Source of the DNA: a virus
Length of the DNA: 64,000 nucleotides
Virus record (IMG/VR): IMGVR_UViG_3300042396_000723
Coordinates: 32,001-96,000 of that record
Strand: one strand, 5' to 3'
Of this stretch, positions 10,291-52,859 are shown in pieces; position 1 is the first letter of the stretch; every line of letters starts with the position of its first letter. The notes beneath the pieces were generated by a model that worked only from the letters and a program-made list of their open reading frames with translations, was not told the DNA's origin and ran no database searches. The position numbers were made by a program, and so were the translations under genes.

Positions 10291-10572
10291 TCAATCATGT
10301 TTCCTCCTGTGTTTTTTGGGGTTTAGCGATCGCAAATAATCTGCAATCGCTCGGCAATGGTTTGGATCATTAACATCTTCATGACACTGAATCCAATGTT
10401 TAATCAGTGTCAAATTGTAGCCATACCCCGCCCGATTCCCCCCAGGGCGTTTGTAATAATGAATATTTTCGATCCATTTTTTGTGAGAGTGTTTAACGGA
10501 ATCGGGATTTTTTAATCCCAGGAGTTTGACCGCTTCATGTTTGGAGCCAAATTCGTAGGCTGTGGCAATCAT
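10291..10572 (-). CDS. small DNA-binding protein, excisionase/MerR-like HTH (tentative)
   Basis: 93 aa; pattern HYYKRPGGNRAGYGYNLTLIKHWI resembles excisionase-type HTH proteins; weak. Confidence 0.25.
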   Translation of the reverse strand: MIATAYEFGSKHEAVKLLGLKNPDSVKHSHKKWIENIHYYKRPGGNRAGYGYNLTLIKHWIQCHEDVNDPNHCRAIADYLRSLNPKKHRRKHD

Positions 10573-19420: not shown

Positions 19421-19984
19421 ATGACCGCAGCAACCAAGAAGATAATTGAAAGAATCTTAAAAATTGGTGAGTGGGTAGAGATTGACCCACATAAACACCG
19501 CCCATCTTATCTAATAAGAGGTACAGCATGGCGAGTTGAAAGTTTCAATGTATTAAAACAAACCTGTCAAGTAACTAACGAAAAAACCAGATCGGAAACC
19601 CTAGACTTTGAGGAGGTTTCCGACTCATCCCCATTCAAAAAAACAGATATTGTGCAATTAAAAAAGGATAGCCGTTACATCGGACGGGTGATTATGTGCC
19701 GGGGGAATAAAATCAAAATTCAGTGGGCGAAAGGATTGGCAGAATCCTTAGACTCGGACAAGATAAAACTATTTATTCAGATGGTCAAAGGGGAACAAAT
19801 CCCCCTCGGAAATTACGCTTTCCAGAAAGGCGATCATGTCAAAACTACAGACAAGAATTTTGGCAATGTAATCCTCACTGTAAAAGAATGCTTACCCTCT
19901 GGAATGGTGGTGTTGAGTTCATCAAACGATCCTAATTTATTGCTCCCCGGCTGTGGCTTAACAATTGTTGAGGAGGGTTTCTAA
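19421..19984 (+). CDS. hypothetical protein
   Basis: 187 aa; stop overlaps methyltransferase start. Confidence 0.4.
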   Translation: MTAATKKIIERILKIGEWVEIDPHKHRPSYLIRGTAWRVESFNVLKQTCQVTNEKTRSETLDFEEVSDSSPFKKTDIVQLKKDSRYIGRVIMCRGNKIKIQWAKGLAESLDSDKIKLFIQMVKGEQIPLGNYAFQKGDHVKTTDKNFGNVILTVKECLPSGMVVLSSSNDPNLLLPGCGLTIVEEGF

Positions 19985-21015
19985 TGCCAACATTCGCAAC
20001 ATTATTCATGGGCGGAGGCGGTGCAGATTTGGGGTTAGAGGCCGCAGGGTTTAAGTCTTTATGGGGAATTGAAAGAGATCCTAAAATTGCAGAAGTAGCA
20101 CGATTAAATTTCCCAAATACCAAAGTATTTAATTCTTGCGCAGGAGACATAAACCCCCGCAGTCTTCCCTATGTTGACCTGCTTTGGATGAGTCCCCCGT
20201 GCCAACAGTATTCAAACGCTAGACGGGGTAATTTAGGCGATCACAAAGACAAGGACGCGGGGCTGTACTGTAGCAGTTATATCGCAGCGATTGATCCTCG
20301 ATGGGTAGTTTTAGAAAACGTCCCTGGCTACTCAAAATCACCTGTATTCGAGAAAATCCTACAATCCTTAATTCGCCACGGATATCGCTATCATTGGTTA
20401 ATACTTGACGCGGCGGATCACGGGGTTCCCCAAAACCGGAAACGGTTGATTATGTGGGCAGTTAAAAATGATCAACCTCTCCCCTATTTCCCCGAATCAA
20501 AACCCAAAAAGGGATGGTATCAAGCCATTGCTGACTTAATCCCAGAAATGCAGGACTGTGAGCTTGCAGACTGGCAGATTAAGCGACTAAATGAATTGGG
20601 TTATTTACCAGAAAAAGCCTGGATTGATATTGGGAAACAACTCATTAGACAGGCTACAGTTCGGGAGTCAAACGATCCAAGTTTTACTATTGTGAGTGGT
20701 CATGTTAACTCGCATTCTCCTATCCTGTTAATCCCCCGAGCGGGAGCTTGCATCAAGAATATTCTCCCGACTCCACAGAACAAACCCTGCCCAACAATTC
20801 GAGCTATGAAGGATGTTTCAACCCATTGGGCGGACATCGTGCAGGGAAGCCAAATTAAACGAATTAGTCAGAAAGCGACGGCACGGCTCCAGACTTTCCC
20901 CGACTCCTATCAATTCCCAGAATCCAAAACTTTAAGCCAACAAATAATAGGAAACGCCGTGCCTCCGTTATTGGCTAAAGAATTAGGTCTGGCAATCTTA
21001 AAATCAATTAACTAA
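19984..21015 (+). CDS. DNA (cytosine-5)-methyltransferase
   Basis: 343 aa; motif I FMGGGG, PC motif SPPCQQYS, ENV motif LENVPG. Confidence 0.9.
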   Translation: MPTFATLFMGGGGADLGLEAAGFKSLWGIERDPKIAEVARLNFPNTKVFNSCAGDINPRSLPYVDLLWMSPPCQQYSNARRGNLGDHKDKDAGLYCSSYIAAIDPRWVVLENVPGYSKSPVFEKILQSLIRHGYRYHWLILDAADHGVPQNRKRLIMWAVKNDQPLPYFPESKPKKGWYQAIADLIPEMQDCELADWQIKRLNELGYLPEKAWIDIGKQLIRQATVRESNDPSFTIVSGHVNSHSPILLIPRAGACIKNILPTPQNKPCPTIRAMKDVSTHWADIVQGSQIKRISQKATARLQTFPDSYQFPESKTLSQQIIGNAVPPLLAKELGLAILKSIN

Positions 21016-29934: not shown

Positions 29935-32058
29935 TTATGCCGTGTAAATTATTGTTATTTTAACTGGTTTTGATAAAATATTTTCGCTATTTGTTGGATG
30001 ATTTATTATTTGTATGTCCGCCACTGACACGGACACGGAAAAATGAAGACCAACAAACTGTGTATCATATCCAGACAATACAAACGCGTTTGCGCTGAAT
30101 TCCACTAATACTGTGACGGATACAATTTTTGAAACCGTAACTCCATGAGCTATTAATGCAACCCCCCCTTCAGTTGCAGCCGTAGTCCCCGTCAAAACTT
30201 TAATCTTAATCCCTGGATGATTAGCGTCCCCACCTAAAGAACTGAAACCACCAACATATTGATTTCCTCCAATCCCCTGTCCCCCAGGAATTACACTAGC
30301 TCCCGTGGTGGGAGATGTTGAAGGTGTTGTGGAATTAGTTGATATCACACCTCTTAGGTAGGTATTGGTGATACTTGAATCACCAATTGTTACGGTGTTT
30401 GAGCCGTTACCGGTGGCGTTAAAACAAAATACGTTTTCGTTGGTTGCGTTCTGGGTTCCTTTTGTATTTGCGCCAAAAAAACAAGAGTTATTTGAGATAG
30501 TTAGACCTGTAACGCCGTCAGAAGTGAAGCGTCCTGCACCAACTCCAAAACCTGCCAAATTACTCCCTGTTATATTGCTGAAAAGCGCACCAACTCCAGA
30601 GGCAGTTAAATTATTCCCTGTAGTGTTATTTTCTAAAGCCCCAACGCCAAAAGCAGACGAATTATTCCCTGTAGTATTAGAACGAAGCGCATTAAGTCCA
30701 GCGGCAGTTAAACTACTCCCTGTAATATTGGACAAAAGCGCACTAACTCCAACTGCCGTTGAATAATTCCCTGTGGTGTTATTTTGTAAAGCCCCAGTTC
30801 CAAAACCTGCCAGGCCAATACCTGTGGTATTGGCCTGGAGCACACTAACTCCTGTTATTGTATTTGTGTCTAAACTCCCCCCTCCTCTCCCAATAGGAAT
30901 CAAATTATAAGAATTGGCACTAACAGTACCAGCAAAAATAGCACCCGTAACCCCTAAACTAGCGACCCTTAAAGCCCCTGTAGTTGTTGATGTTGATTGG
31001 GTTGATAGGGGAATATGAAATCTCGAACTATCAACAGAGAAATAAGTAGTCGCACCATCTCCCCAGGATTGAATCCCTGTCGATATATCTCTCTCCCACC
31101 ACGTTCTAGTGGTACTCAGGGGAATGTTAAAGGAAGCATCAACAGCTATCCCGTTATGAAAACTGGTTGTATTCCAGTCTACACCATTAGCTTTCCGACA
31201 AAGCCAAGTTCTTTCTGTTATTATGTTTCCTGATGCCCCTGTTTTTGAAGATAAAACTTGAAAATCTCCAGATGTACTACCGAGAGGAGACCCTTGATAT
31301 AGACTAACTCCTGCACCTAAAGAACCTATTATGTTTCCGTTTACTGCTAGATTCCCCGTGATAGTCCCACCCGCCAATGAAAGATAGGAATTAATATCAA
31401 TTGAATAAGTCCCATCCCCTGTTTTCTTTAGGAATCCTGGGGTGTCGGATAGCGATTGAATAGCAATTAATTCGTTGCCGATACTGTTAGTTGAAACCGC
31501 AGTTACTTGACCCTTAGCATTGACAGTAATAGCAGGAATTGAACTAGCACTACCGAAAGAACCAGCATTACTATTGACCGTTGCCAGTGTTATCGCACTT
31601 GTAACATTGGCTGAACCATCAAAAGATACTGAATAACTAGCATCCCCCGTTGTTGTAATTGTCCGTGGCGTGGTTAGTTTTAAAGCCTCTCCCGCAGTAG
31701 CAGAACTCGATATCTCAACATAAACAGAACCCGACCATCGGTAAACTTTATTAGTCGTTTCATCAACGTAAATCTTTCCAGTTTCACCCGTACCTGGGAA
31801 CCCGGCAAGGTTTGTATAACTCAGGACATCATCAACATAAGACGGTAAAAGCCCAGATGAAATTGTGCCAGACGCGGCGTTTAAACTTGTTAAAACTTCG
31901 TTACCAGTAGACGCGATCGCACCAACATCAGACGCGGTTAAACTAATCTGAGCTTTAGGAACCTTGGTATTTGAATCCAAGGTAGCCACACCATTAGCCA
32001 TTGCTTTCTCTAATTGCAAAACAATCAAAGAATAATCAATATCCGAAAACATTCCCAT
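29935..32058 (-). CDS. tail fibre protein
   Basis: 707 aa; GKIYVDETTNKVYRWSGSVYV and SIPAITVNAKGQVTAVS phage-fibre repeat motifs; many NTTG/NITG Gly-rich repeats. Confidence 0.8.
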   Translation of the reverse strand: MGMFSDIDYSLIVLQLEKAMANGVATLDSNTKVPKAQISLTASDVGAIASTGNEVLTSLNAASGTISSGLLPSYVDDVLSYTNLAGFPGTGETGKIYVDETTNKVYRWSGSVYVEISSSATAGEALKLTTPRTITTTGDASYSVSFDGSANVTSAITLATVNSNAGSFGSASSIPAITVNAKGQVTAVSTNSIGNELIAIQSLSDTPGFLKKTGDGTYSIDINSYLSLAGGTITGNLAVNGNIIGSLGAGVSLYQGSPLGSTSGDFQVLSSKTGASGNIITERTWLCRKANGVDWNTTSFHNGIAVDASFNIPLSTTRTWWERDISTGIQSWGDGATTYFSVDSSRFHIPLSTQSTSTTTGALRVASLGVTGAIFAGTVSANSYNLIPIGRGGGSLDTNTITGVSVLQANTTGIGLAGFGTGALQNNTTGNYSTAVGVSALLSNITGSSLTAAGLNALRSNTTGNNSSAFGVGALENNTTGNNLTASGVGALFSNITGSNLAGFGVGAGRFTSDGVTGLTISNNSCFFGANTKGTQNATNENVFCFNATGNGSNTVTIGDSSITNTYLRGVISTNSTTPSTSPTTGASVIPGGQGIGGNQYVGGFSSLGGDANHPGIKIKVLTGTTAATEGGVALIAHGVTVSKIVSVTVLVEFSANAFVLSGYDTQFVGLHFSVSVSVADIQIINHPTNSENILSKPVKITIIYTA

Positions 32059-41997: not shown

Positions 41998-43986
41998 ATG
42001 ACCGCCCAATCATCCGAGACAACAAAAAAAGAAACCACCACAGAGATTGTGAATCGTTATAGAGAAGACTCTCGCGTCATGATGCAAGCGTTAGCGGAGA
42101 GTGCCGACGCAAGTTCGATGCGAAATCCTCTCCCTGTAACGGGAAGAATCCAGCCTTTCTCTCAACAGCAAGTAGAAAACTGTTTAGCAGACGCGATCTT
42201 AAAACGAATTGCATGGAGCCTTCCATCTTCGTCAACCCAAAAGATGTGGCAGTTATCCTTGGGGGATGACTTCTCTAGTAAGACGGGTTCTAAATTAGTC
42301 CGAGATTATTATGCCTATCACGAAAGATTGAAAACCATATCACAATTTAGAAAAGCATTGCAGTTCTCTCGCTCTCATGGTGGGACAGTTATTATTCTCA
42401 AGATTAACGATGGAAGACATTATTCCGAACCTGTTGATGAAGGCAAGATTAAATCAATCTCTGGGTTAATCGTTCGTCACCGATGGCAAGTTGCTCCTTC
42501 GGTGAGAACGGCTGCTAGTATATTTGACCTTGATGACATTGAACATTATGAAATCCTAACAATTGACCAACAAATAAAACAAAAATTACTATTTAACGGA
42601 ACAAATTCCAAGCAGGATGATCGCCTGATTCATCGGTCAAGAATCCTCCGGTTTAATGGGGCATTAATGCCTGATGATTGGATGATTTCCTATAACAATG
42701 GATGGGGATTGAGTGTCTTTGACGAGGTTTGGAAATATTATAAAAACTATACGAATGGACTCAATGCAGTAGGCGAATTAATTAAAACCCAATCAGTTCT
42801 ACAGCATTCTTTTGAAGGACTGCGGGAACTGATGATGGCATCTGATGAAGAAAGTATCGCAGCTATTAAGCAAACCATGAAATCAATCCGACTAATGTTT
42901 GATCTATATGGCATGGTTCTCCACGACTCCCGTGAACAATTCAACTGGAATGCCCGCCCCGTCGTCGGGATGGATTCACTCGTGCAAGTACAGAAGGATG
43001 GGGTAACAGGAGCCTCTGGGATGCCTCACACGATAGTTTGGGGAGAAAGCCCTGGGGGTTTGGGGCGTGATGGCAAGGAGACCCAAATCAACTATGCTAA
43101 CTCGGTGGCAGAGTACCAAGGAGAGAGCTTAGATCCTAGCGCAGCTATTCTTGATCGTTATATCTTCTTGGCTAAAGACGGCCCCACAAAAGGCAAAATC
43201 CCCGACAACTACCAGAGGCAGTACCCTTCTATCTTGAGGATGACCATCGAGGATCTCCGCTCTGGACGCTCATCTGATATTCAGGCATTGGCTTCAGGTA
43301 TTCAAGCCGGATTCATCACGACAGATGAAGCTCGGACAGTGCCTTCTAACTCCGGTTGGTGGCCAGAGCTTAATCTTGATCAAAAAGCATGGGAAGAAGC
43401 CAGGAAAAAAGCAGAAGAACAAGCAAACTCCCTTGGTGGTTTTGATATGGGAGCATTAGGAGGAGAGGAAGTTGCCCCACCCACTGAAGAACCCGTCGAA
43501 GAAGAATCTATAACTCAAATGGACAGTGCTGTTTACACCCCAATAAAGCGGGTTCTTAATTGGCACGGGCTATCAATTGGGGTCACTCACGATAAAGGGG
43601 ATCTTCGCTATAACAAAACGATGAAGGTAGGGTATGGGCATATTAGACGCAGCTATGGACACGCGGAGGACGCAAAAGCAATCGACGTTTATATCAAAAA
43701 TCCAAACTCACCTAGTCTCTGGAAGGTTCGGCAACTCAACACAACAACAGGGGAGATTGACGAAACAAAGTATTTCTTGGGTTTTGATTCCCCCAAAGAA
43801 GTGCGCGATTGCTATTACTATCATGCCGGATTAGATCGTTTTGGAGGAGTGGAGAAGTGCGATCCTACGGAATTAAACCAATATCGCCAAGATGCAGAAG
43901 AATTGGAGGGAGTTAATGAAGTTTATCAAAATAAGATATTAACAGATGTAGCAAATAGAATCAATCAACAAACTCAATTAGATTAA
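41998..43986 (+). CDS. portal protein candidate
   Basis: 662 aa; first gene of head block, divergent from terminase block; assignment by size and position. Confidence 0.45.
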   Translation: MTAQSSETTKKETTTEIVNRYREDSRVMMQALAESADASSMRNPLPVTGRIQPFSQQQVENCLADAILKRIAWSLPSSSTQKMWQLSLGDDFSSKTGSKLVRDYYAYHERLKTISQFRKALQFSRSHGGTVIILKINDGRHYSEPVDEGKIKSISGLIVRHRWQVAPSVRTAASIFDLDDIEHYEILTIDQQIKQKLLFNGTNSKQDDRLIHRSRILRFNGALMPDDWMISYNNGWGLSVFDEVWKYYKNYTNGLNAVGELIKTQSVLQHSFEGLRELMMASDEESIAAIKQTMKSIRLMFDLYGMVLHDSREQFNWNARPVVGMDSLVQVQKDGVTGASGMPHTIVWGESPGGLGRDGKETQINYANSVAEYQGESLDPSAAILDRYIFLAKDGPTKGKIPDNYQRQYPSILRMTIEDLRSGRSSDIQALASGIQAGFITTDEARTVPSNSGWWPELNLDQKAWEEARKKAEEQANSLGGFDMGALGGEEVAPPTEEPVEEESITQMDSAVYTPIKRVLNWHGLSIGVTHDKGDLRYNKTMKVGYGHIRRSYGHAEDAKAIDVYIKNPNSPSLWKVRQLNTTTGEIDETKYFLGFDSPKEVRDCYYYHAGLDRFGGVEKCDPTELNQYRQDAEELEGVNEVYQNKILTDVANRINQQTQLD

Positions 43987-44773: not shown

Positions 44774-45739
44774 ATGTATAAAAAGATGACACCAACAGAA
44801 ACTTCAGTAAAATTAGCGATTGCACAAGTCTTGTCAATGCCTTCTGTTTTTAACGCACCTCTTTACGTCTTGGATTTTAACATTGACGAAAAAGGGACGG
44901 TATCAGGAAGGTTTAGAGATGCTGCTAGACCCCGTGTATTTAGCTATGAGATTGCAGACGATGGAATAACCTTTAGTCCCTTTGTCCCTGGAAGAATGGA
45001 TAGCAGTGACTGGAAAGTAGAAGACTGGGAGAAGTTTTCAGATGGCTATTCGTTTAGGATTGACGCAGGGATGCAAAAACGAACCGACAAGCCAAAATGT
45101 AATCCGGCTGTTTCTTTTTCTTGTGGAAAGGCTTGTGTTAGTTTAAAAAAGAAATGCAAAACAGATCCTCAAGATCCGACTTCTGTAGCCAAGAAAGAAA
45201 AATTAAAAGCTGTTATTAAAGAGGTTACAGTTACCGACAAGACGAGCAAAATTAAAGTCAGTAAGGATAAATCTAGTAAGCCCAAAGCCAATAAATTGAT
45301 CAATGACCTAGAACCCTTAGAGCCATTAAACACCTCTCGGACACCCACTGAAACCGTGTTACCTGAGCTAAGTTCTAACAATGTTGTTAAGGGTCTTGGT
45401 GGTAAAGTGGGCAGAGGAAAATATTCAGGCGATGCGGGTAGGGATTTTGAAGATACTGGCAAGATGATGAACTACCCACTAAAAAGCGTTGTAGCCACAA
45501 AGGACATGAAAGGGAAGGAAAAAGAAGTGGCAGACGTAGCAAAAATGTTGAAAGAATCCGAGAGAAATTGGCTCCCTGTTTATGTCAAAGAAGTTAGACC
45601 TTACGAGTATGAAGTTGTCGGAAATCATTTGACCCATGCAGCAGCAATAAAAGCAGGGTTTGAGAGGATTTGGACTATTCCGGTTGATTCAGATCCGGCT
45701 ACTCTCAAACAGATTCAAATGTTAACAAACGGTAATTAA
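44774..45739 (+). CDS. polymorphic effector family member A (shared N-domain, Cys knuckle, ParB-like C-terminus)
   Basis: 321 aa; N-terminal VKLAIAQVLSMPSVFNAPLYVLDF...GRFRDAARPRVFSY; KPKCNPAVSFSCGKACVSLKKKCKTDP; C-terminal YEYEVVGNHLTHAAAIKAGFERIWTIPV resembles the ParB fold. Confidence 0.5.
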   Translation: MYKKMTPTETSVKLAIAQVLSMPSVFNAPLYVLDFNIDEKGTVSGRFRDAARPRVFSYEIADDGITFSPFVPGRMDSSDWKVEDWEKFSDGYSFRIDAGMQKRTDKPKCNPAVSFSCGKACVSLKKKCKTDPQDPTSVAKKEKLKAVIKEVTVTDKTSKIKVSKDKSSKPKANKLINDLEPLEPLNTSRTPTETVLPELSSNNVVKGLGGKVGRGKYSGDAGRDFEDTGKMMNYPLKSVVATKDMKGKEKEVADVAKMLKESERNWLPVYVKEVRPYEYEVVGNHLTHAAAIKAGFERIWTIPVDSDPATLKQIQMLTNGN

Positions 45740-46181: not shown

Positions 46182-49100
46182 ATGGTCACAACCTTAAACC
46201 GTCAAAATCCCCGTCGCCTTGATGCTGCTCCTACGGAAGTGCAGATGAAACTTGGTATTTCTCAAGTTTTGTCGATGCCATTTGCCTACAACTCTCCGGT
46301 TATCGTTCTGGATTTTGAAGTAGGCAATAAAAACATCATCAAGGGACGGTTTAAGGATGCCATTAGATCCCGTGTTTTTGAGTTTGAGATTGGGGATTCT
46401 ATCACGTTCAAGCCGTTCACCTGGAGGCGAACGGATAGCGACGTTGACCCGATGGCATGGGAAGACTTCTCTAAAGGGTATTGCTACCGATTCGATGCAG
46501 TCAAGACCGTCAGAAAGGAAAAACCTAAGTGTGGCAATACTTCTTATAACTGCGGTAAAGCCTGCATTGGCTTAAACAAGAATTGCAAATCAGATCCCCC
46601 CGATAAACCGTCCCAGGAGAAAGTTGATAAACTCAGAGCCGCGGCAGGGGAGTTTAAAGCTGTTCAGGGCGATCCAACCAAGAAGCAAGAGGATAATAAG
46701 TTAACGCCAAAACCACAGGAAGTTAAGGAAGTCGCGCCCACCCCCTCTCCCGATAAAGCAGAAGTCCCTGTCACCGACCTTGCTAAACAGCCACCTGTTG
46801 CCTTAAAAATTGGTAAAAAATCAGTCAACCTAAAAGACGACCTTGATTCCTACAAAGATTTAAGAATAACCGCCGATCCCGTTTTAGGTTGGCAAGTTAT
46901 CAATAAGAATGGGAACGTACTGAGAGAACCGCCCAAGGGCAACACGGCTCCAAGTCATAGATTCAAGAAAAGAGAGCAGGCTGAAAAGTTTGCTAACGAT
47001 GTGATGACACGGGTTGAGAAGTTGCAGAAGGCTCAACCAAAACCGGATGCTGATGTAAGTGACTCTGATAAAAGGTCATTTGAAAGTCTTTACACCACAA
47101 AATTATCATCCGCCCAACAGTTGCTTAACTTAGAAAAAAACGCAAAAATAGCGCGAATATCTCCCAGTGAAGATCAAAAAAATTATGACAAAAAACAACC
47201 CGACCTCAATATTGATTCGGGGCCAGGAATAATGGAAGGTTGGAGGACTGCGAAACCAGACGGATCTGTCCAGGGAATCCCTTGGTCTGTCAAGGCGGAG
47301 GGTCAAGAAAAGTCACGGGCTATCGTGGGTGCTAGATTAACGGATCATCCAGCCAGCCCTAATTTAAAAAGACTCAGGTTATACGACGCAGACGGACGTA
47401 ATGAGACAATTGACTTCAAAAAGGGTGATAGAAACGCATCTCTTAGGGCTAGAAGACTTGTTAGAGAAATCGCACAAGGAAAGTCTCAAGAGATGGAATC
47501 TGGCGACATAAAAGCGTTGATTGAGGGAGGTAAAGAGGGTTTAGCTAAAAGAAAAGTGGAAAAGGCAAGATTAGCTGCTGAAGACAAGCAATTTAAAGCA
47601 GCCTTAGATGATTATTTAAAATCAAAAAACCTAACAAGAGAAAGCATTAAAGGTTTGACCGATATCGGAATGGACGATCTTATCGAAAAAGTTGAGAAAT
47701 ACCAGAAATCACGATCTCAAACCCCCAATTCAGCAGGGGATAAGGGTGCGGGGGGTAAAACGTTTGACCTAAATGATTTATGGCGACAAACCGCCGACGC
47801 TGCTTATTCTAAAAACAAAGATGGTGTCTCAAAAAATCTTGAGCAATGGAAGGAAGTTGTAAAAAAATTAGAGTCAGGAGAAGGGATCTCTAAAGACGTT
47901 AACTTAAACGAATACGAAAAGTTAATGGATAATTTAGAAAAAAAATTAGTCCTCGATCCCAAAGATCCGTCTAATGTTGAATTTAAAAAGATTACGGGAT
48001 CTATTTCTAAGATTCTTAGTAAAGCAGGCAGTCTCAACCCGTTAACACAAGAAGACCTAGAAAAAGCTCACCCTAACTTTAGACCAATCATGCAACGAAT
48101 TAATAAAACCGTTGCTAAGGATTATGAATTATTTGACAAAAAAGAGCGAGTTCAAAAAGAGTTAAATAGCCTAAAACAAGAAAAATCTTATAACGAGGCT
48201 GTGATATTAAATAATTCAAAACGATTCCGAGAAATAGGTATTAATAATAACGAGGTAGAAATTCAAAGACTTTCCAAGAAAAAACCGAGCGATTCAGTTG
48301 AGGTTAGAAATCCTGTCTCAAATTTACCAGAAAGGACTATTTCGGCATCCAAACGGATTAAGGAACTTCAAGATGAAATTGGGGAATTGAATAATAGTGA
48401 AAAAGCTAAAATAGAAGAAGACAGGGCTAGAAAAGAAATAGCCCGATTGCAAAGCCCAATGAAGGATGCAGAGAGTAGAATAAACGCCATTTTAGACGAG
48501 AAGAAAAAATTAAGGGAATCTCGCGGCGGATCTAGTTCACAATCAGAACCCAAGCAAACCCCAAATTCAGTAGGGGTTGATGGTGCGGGGGGTAAATCAG
48601 TTGATCAACAATATAAGGATATAATTGCTAAGTCGAAAGATCCAAAGGGAACAGAGGAAGTTTTATCGTCAGCATTAAGAGGTGGGTTTGGTGACTTTGA
48701 AAGAAAAAATTATAACGAATATTCAACCGCTATAAAATCTGGGACTGTTCCAAAAGGAATGGGGAACTATTATCAAAAACAAGTCGACAAATATAAACCC
48801 ATTATTGAGGCGGAAGATTTTATTAACGAAAGGAAGAAAAAAGCAATTAGTGGAGACTATGAAACAGAACAAGAAGCTGGGGTTTATGTTCTTAATAAAT
48901 TAAAGCAAAAAGGCTACAAAGAACACGAATATTATGACAGTCCAGACTATGAAAAAGATTATGGAAAATTGGTGGGGGTAATGAAATCTGTTAAACTTCC
49001 TCCGCCGTTGTCTGGTATCGTCCCCGGTAAAGAATTAAAACAGACATTAACTCCGGGTGACAAACTACTTGTTAAAGAGGATACTTATTCGTTAATGAGT

Positions 49101-49466
49101 AGTGGAAATACCCCTACTGGCTATCGAATAGTTGATGGTGGCGAAGTTTTAAAGGTTAATGTCAAGAATGTTAAAACCCGCGTTAGAGGCGAATACATGG
49201 GGAAACCCTACGAGAACGAGCCGTCTCTCGCTCTTGATAAAGTTACCCACGTCATCCGAGATGGTAAACGTTACAAGGTAGATGATTCTGATAGATCCCC
49301 CAATGACTTAAAGTCGGAATCCTCCAAATCCCAGAAAGCAGTAAAACAAAAGGCAGTAAAACAGAAAGCAATAAAAGTTCAAGGGGAGCGATCGCAAAAA
49401 CAAGAATCCCCTCTAATTCCGAAAGAGGAAATAGTTAAAGATGCTCCAATACTGATGTTAAGGTAA
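46182..49466 (+). CDS. polymorphic effector family member B (long repeat-containing C-terminus)
   Basis: 1094 aa; shared N-domain and KPKCGNTSYNCGKACIGLNKNCKSDP; internal repeats NSAGDKGAGGKTFD / NSVGVDGAGGKSVD; lysine-rich. Confidence 0.5.
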   Translation: MVTTLNRQNPRRLDAAPTEVQMKLGISQVLSMPFAYNSPVIVLDFEVGNKNIIKGRFKDAIRSRVFEFEIGDSITFKPFTWRRTDSDVDPMAWEDFSKGYCYRFDAVKTVRKEKPKCGNTSYNCGKACIGLNKNCKSDPPDKPSQEKVDKLRAAAGEFKAVQGDPTKKQEDNKLTPKPQEVKEVAPTPSPDKAEVPVTDLAKQPPVALKIGKKSVNLKDDLDSYKDLRITADPVLGWQVINKNGNVLREPPKGNTAPSHRFKKREQAEKFANDVMTRVEKLQKAQPKPDADVSDSDKRSFESLYTTKLSSAQQLLNLEKNAKIARISPSEDQKNYDKKQPDLNIDSGPGIMEGWRTAKPDGSVQGIPWSVKAEGQEKSRAIVGARLTDHPASPNLKRLRLYDADGRNETIDFKKGDRNASLRARRLVREIAQGKSQEMESGDIKALIEGGKEGLAKRKVEKARLAAEDKQFKAALDDYLKSKNLTRESIKGLTDIGMDDLIEKVEKYQKSRSQTPNSAGDKGAGGKTFDLNDLWRQTADAAYSKNKDGVSKNLEQWKEVVKKLESGEGISKDVNLNEYEKLMDNLEKKLVLDPKDPSNVEFKKITGSISKILSKAGSLNPLTQEDLEKAHPNFRPIMQRINKTVAKDYELFDKKERVQKELNSLKQEKSYNEAVILNNSKRFREIGINNNEVEIQRLSKKKPSDSVEVRNPVSNLPERTISASKRIKELQDEIGELNNSEKAKIEEDRARKEIARLQSPMKDAESRINAILDEKKKLRESRGGSSSQSEPKQTPNSVGVDGAGGKSVDQQYKDIIAKSKDPKGTEEVLSSALRGGFGDFERKNYNEYSTAIKSGTVPKGMGNYYQKQVDKYKPIIEAEDFINERKKKAISGDYETEQEAGVYVLNKLKQKGYKEHEYYDSPDYEKDYGKLVGVMKSVKLPPPLSGIVPGKELKQTLTPGDKLLVKEDTYSLMSSGNTPTGYRIVDGGEVLKVNVKNVKTRVRGEYMGKPYENEPSLALDKVTHVIRDGKRYKVDDSDRSPNDLKSESSKSQKAVKQKAVKQKAIKVQGERSQKQESPLIPKEEIVKDAPILMLR

Positions 49467-49641
49467 CAGATAGAGATGGAATTATTCTTGTGGAAGCCGA
49501 AGAAGTATAGAAAATTAACAATAAATTAGTGGTTTTGCTTCTGTTTTGCCCAAAATAAAACTGTTATAATTAATAATAACAAACGCCTCTCGCGGTGCGC
49601 TAACACCCAGAGGCAGTAGATCCTATCCAAGAGGAACCACA

Positions 49642-51344: not shown

Positions 51345-52859
51345 ATGGTTGAAATCAGGCTTGATGCTCCAGCTAAATTTAGGGTAATCAGAACTGATGA
51401 TGGTCGCCTCCATTGTGAGGGGTCTTTTTGTCGTGATGGGGTGTTGGAATATCGTCAGCCTGATGGCTCCATAGTCCACGAACTCAGGAGACCGGAAACC
51501 AATGCAGAACTAGCCACAGTGGAGAGTTTTAAGCTCCTCCCCCTGGTAATTGAACATCCCCATGTTGGGCTTCTTAATAGCGAAAGTTATAAGGATTACG
51601 CAGTCGGGATGACTGATTCTTCTGCTTATTACAACAAGGCTGAAGGGGTGATCGAAGGCTTGGTGTCGTTTTTTGATGCTAAAGCGATCGCCCTAATTGA
51701 TTCAAGGGAAAAGGAACAGTTGTCTGCGGGATATACCTGCGATATCAAACAAGGGGCAGGGGTATGGAATGGTCAACACTACGACAGAGAACAGATTAAT
51801 GTTCGTGCTAACCATTTGGCTTTAACGAGCCGAGGAAGGGCAGGAGAAGATGCCCGTCTCCGATTAGATAGTGCTGCGGGGATTGGGCAAGCTGTTGCAG
51901 GGCAAGCTGTTGAAAACCCTAGTAACCCCAACAAAACCAAAGATAATGGAGATAATGAACAGCGCATGGCAATAATTAGATGCGATGGAGTCGAATATTC
52001 AGGAATCCCTGAAGTTTTCGCTTCTATTAGTGGTACTCGATTCCGTGAATTAAAAGAATTAAAGGAACGCCACGATTCGCTTGTTACACGGTTTGACGCT
52101 ACGATTCGGGAGAATCGGAAGCTAGAAGCCGCACAAGAGAACTACCAGTTTCGGTTGGATAACCTGGAAATCATTGTGGACAATGCTGACAATGTCCTTG
52201 GTGAATTAGGTTATTACCGGAACGACATGGGGCAATACGTCCGTGTTGATGGGGGCAAAAAGAAAATGATGTCTCTTGTTCCCGAAGATGAAGAAATGAT
52301 GGAAGATGAGGACAATGAAGATGAAGAAATGATGGAAGATGAGGTTATGGAAGAAAAAGAAACCATGACTTCCAGAAAGAAAAAAAAGTCCAAACCTCGT
52401 GCTGATGGCGACGATGAAGGCGAGAGTGATTACCGGGGTGATTCAATCGGGGATCTGTTGGCGATTTGGAAGGAAGCCGACAGTTTGTTACCAGGGTTCT
52501 CTGACACTCGGTTTGATAGTGGCTTCTCCACTAGCGATATCAAGCGCACTTTGTTGGCTGAAATCGAACCCAATATGGATTTGACGTTCCGATCCGATTC
52601 TTATGTAGACGGGGTTTTTGCCTACATTCAGGAGAATTATGATTCCTCCCCCACCGATCCAGGTGACGAAGAAGAAGGGGATGACGAGGAGGAAGACGAT
52701 GGAGACTCGGAGGAGTTTTCCCATCGCCTTGATTCGGTACTCAAAAGACCTGCTCAATCTACCTACGGAGATGAACTCACCGAATGGGAAAGACGACGGG
52801 TAGATGCCTATAAGCAGCCTTTAACGATAGGAAAAACACGCACGGGGTTTACTAGATAA
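51345..52859 (+). CDS. head morphogenesis protein (protease/scaffold-like)
   Basis: 504 aa; acidic C-terminal region with 33-bp tandem repeat (EDEEMMEDE x2); position before capsid candidates. Confidence 0.4.
   Translation: MVEIRLDAPAKFRVIRTDDGRLHCEGSFCRDGVLEYRQPDGSIVHELRRPETNAELATVESFKLLPLVIEHPHVGLLNSESYKDYAVGMTDSSAYYNKAEGVIEGLVSFFDAKAIALIDSREKEQLSAGYTCDIKQGAGVWNGQHYDREQINVRANHLALTSRGRAGEDARLRLDSAAGIGQAVAGQAVENPSNPNKTKDNGDNEQRMAIIRCDGVEYSGIPEVFASISGTRFRELKELKERHDSLVTRFDATIRENRKLEAAQENYQFRLDNLEIIVDNADNVLGELGYYRNDMGQYVRVDGGKKKMMSLVPEDEEMMEDEDNEDEEMMEDEVMEEKETMTSRKKKKSKPRADGDDEGESDYRGDSIGDLLAIWKEADSLLPGFSDTRFDSGFSTSDIKRTLLAEIEPNMDLTFRSDSYVDGVFAYIQENYDSSPTDPGDEEEGDDEEEDDGDSEEFSHRLDSVLKRPAQSTYGDELTEWERRRVDAYKQPLTIGKTRTGFTR

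Follow-up and report, generated by a model that had tools for sequence, protein, structure and literature searches.

A short linker recurs at the module junctions of gene B, a putative head-cargo protein of a PaV-LD-like cyanophage

Phages carry head proteins that disarm the host when injected along with the DNA, and how this arsenal diversifies is poorly understood. Here we describe gene B, which lies in a 64,000-nucleotide (nt) stretch of viral DNA (positions 32,001 to 96,000 of IMG/VR record IMGVR_UViG_3300042396_000723; hereafter the window, in whose numbering positions are given), and a short linker that occurs twice in its product and recurs at module junctions among its relatives. The window is a close relative of the Planktothrix phage PaV-LD, with about 95% nt identity over the alignable parts. 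The open reading frame (ORF) that a preliminary description of this DNA had reported at 46182-49466, with a product of 1,094 amino acids (aa), is present and its translation agrees; an identical protein, P0001, is encoded on a 96-kb contig. Its modules follow one another in the order N-M1-M2-L-M3-L-M4-tail, in which N is the N-terminal domain and L the linker:

46182-49466, plus strand: gene B, encoding a modular, basic protein of 1,094 aa.
46182-46727, plus strand: shared N-terminal domain (N-domain), aa 1-182; a helix, a four-stranded sheet, a Cx6-7Cx3Cx6C knuckle and a helix.
46767-47051, plus strand: module M1, aa 196-290; positioned after M3 in some relatives.
47052-47717, plus strand: module M2, aa 291-512; beta-sheet and long helices, with a predicted local distance difference test score (pLDDT) of 70-86.
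47718-47759, plus strand: linker copy 1, QTPNSAGDKGAGGK, aa 513-526; predicted to be disordered.
47760-48554, plus strand: module M3, aa 527-791 (265 residues); mostly helical, coiled-coil-like.
48555-48596, plus strand: linker copy 2, QTPNSVGVDGAGGK, aa 792-805; predicted to be disordered.
48597-49310, plus strand: module M4, aa 806-1043; helical bundle and C-terminal beta-barrel, pLDDT 80-90.
49311-49463, plus strand: lysine-rich disordered tail, which includes a 15-nt tandem repeat and a HIP1 site at 49388.

Gene B consists of five separable modules, which are distributed independently among its relatives. The protein is strongly basic, with an isoelectric point (pI) of 9.4 and a net charge of +38, compared with a pI of 5.5-5.6 for the portal and capsid proteins. 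Lysine makes up 13.4% of the whole protein and 21.6% of the tail, in line with the lysine-rich low complexity noted previously. Pfam, NCBIfam and PHROGs scans of gene B and of each module returned only a PHROG match to the N-domain, and promoter and terminator scans around the gene gave nothing better than shuffled sequence.

The two linker copies, QTPNSAGDKGAGGK and QTPNSVGVDGAGGK, are identical at 11 of 14 residues, which corresponds to a BLOSUM62 score of 56. By comparison, the best 14-mer pair in shuffled versions of gene B scored 34.1 ± 3.0 on average and 46 at most (200 shuffles). The two similar GAGGK-containing segments of the preliminary description, whose coordinates were roughly correct, are therefore a genuine repeat, but a shorter one than proposed: 14 residues repeat, and the last six to eight of each 20-residue segment are unrelated. 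In the DNA, the copies form a direct, in-frame repeat of 50 nt with 84% identity and a spacing of 837 nt. A degenerate 42-nt pattern describing the linker has only two sites in the 64-kb window, with 0 expected by chance. Across relatives, the linker conforms to the consensus [KQS][PQS][ST]PNSxGxxG(AGG/AIA)K. Both copies also contain a GCGGGGGGTAA run (47745-47759 and 48582-48596) that brings a TAA stop at once into the -1 frame. An additional G, or slippage by -1 on the G6 run of the linker, would truncate the product right at a boundary between modules; eight of ten GAGGK-type junctions share this arrangement.

Two similar 14-aa segments lying 279 residues apart could be the visible part of a true internal domain duplication, that is, of two homologous structural repeats that each start at a GAGGK segment. 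However, self-BLASTP of gene B at E ≤ 100 returned the self-match alone and no internal repeat beyond the 14-residue segments. The sequences that follow the two linkers (TFDLNDLW... and SVDQQYKD...) are unrelated, and the predicted folds of M3 and M4 differ. With only 14 residues alike, the suggestion that the GAGGK segments belong to a repeated structural domain did not hold, and we consider a duplication of this kind extremely improbable.

To describe the structural setting of the linkers, we used an AlphaFold2 model of gene B with 27 homologues in the input and a mean pLDDT of 59. In this model, aa 513-528 and 781-804 lie between confident modules, have pLDDT below 50 and are without secondary structure; helices at 494-512 and 739-781 precede the two linker segments. 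M3 is modelled as mostly helical with one short beta-hairpin, and M4 as a helical bundle plus a beta-barrel. Foldseek searches with the full model gave no match in the PDB at E ≤ 1e-3 and, in BFVD, nothing beyond the two proteins of PaV-LD itself except coiled-coil-type noise. One coiled-coil-type BFVD match (E = 4e-4, TM-score 0.08), in which the target was a tail tape measure protein, was discounted. Sequence searches of the PDB with gene B and with a profile of the N-domain returned chance-level matches only (NifU, keratin).

The preliminary description had also raised the possibility that the GAGGK segments are nucleotide-binding loops, which would make them Walker-A-like loops that bind phosphate in two nucleotide-binding domains. 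The segments are indeed rich in glycine and finish with GK[ST], and in the model a helix comes after each of them. However, their likeness to the P-loop nucleoside triphosphatases goes no further than this glycine-rich stretch, as pattern, structural context and conservation all fail. The pattern [AG]xxxxGK[ST] is not matched, because the segments read ...G-D-K-G-A-G-G-K-T and ...G-V-D-G-A-G-G-K-S, with D or V at position 1. Each is preceded by a helix and not by a beta-strand, both are coil with pLDDT below 50, and the Rossmann-like sheet is absent from M3 and from the first half of M4. Corresponding junctions in homologues read GAIAKS, GESGKAIAK, GVEEPGDRGK or GVKPTTK, which shows that the lysine of GK[ST] is not conserved, and no P-loop family was matched in Pfam or NCBIfam. 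We therefore reject the nucleotide-binding idea, which has next to no chance of being correct; for the question originally asked of these segments, the practical outcome is that they are not nucleotide-binding sites.

Identity between gene B and PaV-LD ORF061R is 95.0%, and the only gap, exactly 279 residues long, corresponds to aa 513-791 or, equivalently, 527-805 of gene B, that is, to one linker plus M3. The length of the gap matches the 837-nt spacing of the repeat. The DNA of the one linker in ORF061R is like that of copy 1 in its left part and like that of copy 2 in its right part. M3 is missing from ORF061R; it is 59% identical to part of ORF065R, a further PaV-LD member of the family, and its closest relative anywhere is 68% identical. 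Neither ORF061R nor ORF065R is mentioned in the Sandusky Bay and CL131 papers. At positions 10415-10430 of PaV-LD (L001), one extra T splits ORF061R from ORF062R, which encodes an ADP-ribosyltransferase (ART) domain: PaV-LD reads CCTTAAA, and the protein sequences of fused relatives imply CCTAAA. This T either reflects a genuine frameshift or was introduced by sequencing error.

We next consider 45 relatives from metagenomes, whose architectures were determined using the gene B modules as probes. Module order, presence and identity all vary among them, as illustrated by the arrangements N-M1-M2-L-M4-T-ART, N-X-L-M3-M4-T-ART, N-M3-L-M1-T-ART, N-M4-T-ART and N-M1-M2-L-T-ART (T, tail); the gene B arrangement, N-M1-M2-L-M3-L-M4-T, is found once in the sample. 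Identities are discordant even inside one protein, for example 99-100% for M1 and M2 while M4 is at 52-56%. The linker motif follows at least 7 distinct upstream contexts and precedes at least 10 distinct downstream contexts, and some of the proteins that bear it have an N-terminus and a C-terminus that are both entirely different from those of gene B. One such second carrier family (P0026, P0027, P0030-32, P0035 and P0041, all from outside the window) begins MIDFPTLFP...CGNKGVFIPRRNKC and ends FAKPGCCC...RRGTRYA. It shares modules M2, M3 and M4, together with linkers, with the gene B family, and cassettes therefore appear to move between two protein scaffolds.

Junction DNA was compared for 15 distinct junctions, which yielded 70 pairs with unrelated flanks (below 45% nt identity). 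Across these 70 pairs, the 24-nt core of the linker has a mean identity of 70%. Of the 15 junction DNAs, 8 contain the codons GGT GCG GGG GGT and 10 contain GGT GCG. Linker DNA is thus a conserved island between unrelated flanks, and the linker is therefore most likely both a flexible tether and a short stretch of homology for the exchange, insertion and deletion of modules. Moreover, half-linkers are found in P0012 and P0041, and tandem linkers, with no sequence separating the copies, in P0014 and P0033, from which it follows that crossovers fall inside the linker too.

These data also bear on another account, in which the linker is a passive flexible spacer that forms the C-terminal tail of modules by common descent, and shuffling occurs by illegitimate recombination anywhere in low-complexity DNA. 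In favour of this account, M2 always leads into the same tail, QKSxSQTPNS, the tail after M3 is ESRG...TPNS, and other Lys/Pro-rich spacers that lack the linker motif join modules as well. It does not sit easily, however, with the presence of the same core after at least 7 unrelated modules, with about 70% nt identity between flanks that are no more alike than random sequence; with a difference between gene B and PaV-LD of exactly one repeat period; or with half and tandem linkers, which point to crossovers within the linker. We regard a purely passive spacer as unlikely.

Codon usage in the linker raises a further alternative. Serine codons of the linker include both TCA and AGT, and CCA/CCC and GGG/GGA variation is seen as well, so that TPNSxG is kept in the protein despite changes in the DNA. 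Such conservation would be expected if the linker were a proteolytic processing site, at which the prohead protease or the HExxH paralogues E, F and G described below cut at TPNSxG and free the modules within the capsid or the host. The linker is predicted to be exposed and disordered, the HExxH paralogues are encoded in the same window, and processing by peptidases has been proposed or is known for polyvalent and P1 Dar proteins (PMC5512222). Proteolysis is also compatible with the modular-cargo interpretation developed below, the duplication then representing two cut sites. Within the window, however, the motif occurs only in gene B, and not in the capsid, scaffold-like or portal proteins or in paralogues A and C-G, which down-weights a generic prohead-protease site. 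Many equivalent junctions carry other linkers or half-linkers (for example in P0012, in P0041 and at the M3-M4 junction of P0007), and the motif is without an acidic residue. To our knowledge, characterised prohead protease sites do contain an acidic residue. We regard cleavage at the linker as an unlikely explanation, but still a serious competitor.

Variants of the linker often carry the cyanobacterial HIP1 palindrome GCGATCGC, which occurs 23 times in the 64 kb compared with 0.45 expected. In the family genes of the window and of related loci, 58 HIP1 sites are found almost exclusively in the 'AIAQ' helix of the N-domain, in linker variants and in the K-rich tail. The HIP1-bearing linker variants read GAIAK, KAIAV and RAIAK, and the first of these is 5 nt away from the GAGGK linker. 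A more ambitious proposal can be built on this association: that the TPNSxG..G(AGG/AIA)K linker is a dedicated in-frame recombination joint with which PaV-LD-like cyanophages recombine the modules of virion-delivered proteins combinatorially in an arms race against host defences, with HIP1-associated recombination possibly driving the exchange. We put this forward as a speculation that is rather doubtful as it stands. No phage recombinase was found among the ten large ORFs sampled. A DNA methyltransferase gene (phrog_116) lies at 19984-21015 in this window rich in HIP1/CGATCG sites.

The lysine-rich tail contains the AVKQK repeat of the preliminary description, which had counted three units. 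In the DNA, a 15-nt unit is repeated in tandem at 49335-49376 (2.8 copies) and encodes AVKQK-AVKQK-AIKVQ, the third unit being AIKVQ. Relatives have between about 1 and 4 copies, a variation that is consistent with replication slippage in a disordered tail that precedes an ART domain. Most orthologues of gene B end in one to three ART domains, which are reached through this tail. In gene B itself, the following remnant, which compares with the C-termini of P0036 and P0045, is found out of frame directly beyond the stop region:

49454-49510, plus strand: ART remnant DVKVTDRDGIILVEAEEV*, 57 nt encoding the last 18 residues of an ART domain.

Gene B has lost its own ART domain by deletion.

The N-domain places gene B in a larger family. 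The first approximately 180 residues of the gene B product are common to at least 7 other ORFs in the window (at least 8 in all), which bears out the earlier view of a family with a common N-domain and differing downstream parts. Four cysteines, in the arrangement Cx6-7Cx3Cx6C, are invariant. The domain has no Pfam family; it matches positions 594-765 of phrog_16619, annotated 'minor head protein'. A separate model of the N-domain (pLDDT 79) gave no Foldseek match in the PDB, and Phage_Mu_F (PF04233) was not matched in Pfam scans of gene B, its paralogues and 56 distant members. These distant members were drawn from a profile search that found the N-domain in 191 clusters among 1.84 billion representatives; some carry InPase (8 of 56), ART, LRAT, protein kinase, lipase/esterase, LPD1, GNAT or PARP domains, and one N-domain plus ART gene lies directly after a Phage_portal_3 gene. 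When N-domains were compared by tblastn with 50,697 cultured phage records, only PaV-LD was found, and a scan of GTDB recovered only contigs of metagenome-assembled genomes (MAGs) that resemble mis-binned phage, and one Planktothrix MAG.

Other members of the family and the relevant neighbours of gene B are as follows:

41998-43986, plus strand: portal protein with a C-terminal InPase domain (PF18823), upstream of the first two members of the family.
44774-45739, plus strand: paralogue A, an N-domain followed by a ParB-like C-terminal region.
51345-52859: DUF2213 prohead protease.
56125-63585, plus strand: paralogues C-G, the N-domain or its Cys4 half only, fused to differing C-terminal domains.
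63587-64000: partial family member, which runs off the window end.

The C-terminal part is of unknown type in paralogue C, consists of two ART domains in D (Pfam ART above threshold) and contains HExxH in E, F and G. Together, the window paralogues with the Cys4 N-domain look like an arsenal of putative head-delivered effectors. Paralogue E seems decayed or frameshifted: an ORF at 59528-59620 encodes the first 30 or so N-domain residues before a stop, and ORF E (59598-60716), in a different frame, takes up the Cys4 half. PaV-LD ORF059R (38 aa; L001 7565-7681) is a truncated N-domain remnant of paralogue A. The gene order runs portal-InPase, a small ORF, paralogue A, gene B, Ant/KilAC-like, Neck1-like, DUF2213 prohead protease, XM1 gp53-like and major capsid. 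Gene B is thereby situated between the portal gene and the prohead protease and major capsid genes, with the terminase nearby.

The domain repertoire of the family (ART, InPase and others), the head-gene context and the synteny with the portal gene lead us to read gene B as head-packaged modular cargo. By analogy, its product is probably packaged in the virion and injected. We think it probable, although far from assured, that gene B, in a PaV-LD-like cyanophage, encodes a modular cargo protein of the polyvalent, minor-head type, with linkers that act as flexible tethers and as recombination joints. In the mechanism that we propose, the family-specific N-terminal domain, encoded beside the portal gene, would bring the product into the capsid. 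Four modules, globular or helical and unrelated to one another, would follow on disordered Lys/Pro/Gly-rich linkers, and the GAGGK repeats would be two copies of one linker that is used family-wide at module junctions. A divergent M3 cassette, placed between M2 and M4, would account for the doubled linker, and recombination between the two copies would restore the exact architecture of PaV-LD ORF061R. The doubled linker may be the footprint of an M3 insertion or, equally, a substrate for M3 deletion.

Several points weigh against this interpretation. The N-domain is not detectably MuF/gp7 and is without a structural match; the capsid-targeting role therefore rests on synteny and analogy. Likewise, the argument for virion packaging and host delivery of B/ORF061R draws on synteny, annotation and analogy, and recombination as the mechanism is suggested by comparisons between genomes. 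ART, the only recognisable effector domain, has been lost from gene B, and the four middle modules are unmatched in Pfam, NCBIfam, PHROGs, the PDB and BFVD. Finally, the switch between TCA and AGT serine codons shows protein-level selection on TPNSxG, which a pure DNA-homology role for the linker does not explain.

These observations define, in a phage lineage of a bloom-forming cyanobacterium, an uncharacterised Cys4 N-domain family with at least 8 paralogues per genome. The family displays extreme shuffling of modules, with a short recurrent linker exactly at the points of exchange. If the linker is indeed a recombination joint, it would offer a simple natural mechanism for shuffling domains in frame, as well as a handle for predicting module boundaries in otherwise unannotated proteins.

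The case has parallels in other phage systems. Collagen-like Gly-X-Y repeats flank the variable region of host-specificity genes in Streptococcus thermophilus phages, and the modules of lambdoid phages are bordered by 'boundary sequences'; a role as recombination hot spots has been put forward for such short conserved flanks. Those examples involve modules of tail fibres or whole genes, whereas in gene B the joints lie within a head-cargo gene and connect unrelated domains. Like gene B, MuF and SPP1 gp7, for which the term 'minor head protein' is also used, are encoded beside the portal gene and combine a constant N-terminal part with variable C-terminal effectors, among which ART is a common partner. 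By contrast with them, the N-domain of gene B matches neither PF04233 nor a PDB entry, and the analogy is one of position and architecture. The T4 Alt and internal proteins and P1 DarA and DarB are basic or enzyme-bearing proteins that travel in the head and enter the host with the DNA, as the product of gene B would. The ART domains of gene B orthologues parallel T4 Alt with no sequence relationship, and T4 uses a short, cleaved capsid-targeting peptide where gene B has a domain of about 180 aa.

The closest comparison is with the polyvalent proteins of phages and conjugative elements described by Iyer, Burroughs, Anand, de Souza and Aravind in 2017 (PMC5512222), for which head packaging and injection alongside the DNA were proposed, and among which are portal-InPase fusions. 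Such a fusion is also present in the window. Like gene B, polyvalent proteins combine many unrelated domains in one polypeptide, are encoded among packaging genes and show extensive mosaicism, and the gene B family shares with them a repertoire of ART, InPase, LPD1, kinase, lipase, GNAT and metallopeptidase-like domains. Unlike them, gene B itself is without a recognisable enzymatic domain and is left with the out-of-frame ART remnant. The Cys4 N-domain that unifies its family has no Pfam model, and the words 'linker' and 'shuffling' are absent from the main text of PMC5512222, in which a recurrent inter-module linker is apparently not discussed. Proteins of this kind, polyvalent or minor-head effector proteins, are already known; what is new here is the N-domain, as judged against Pfam, and the linker that recurs at the junctions.

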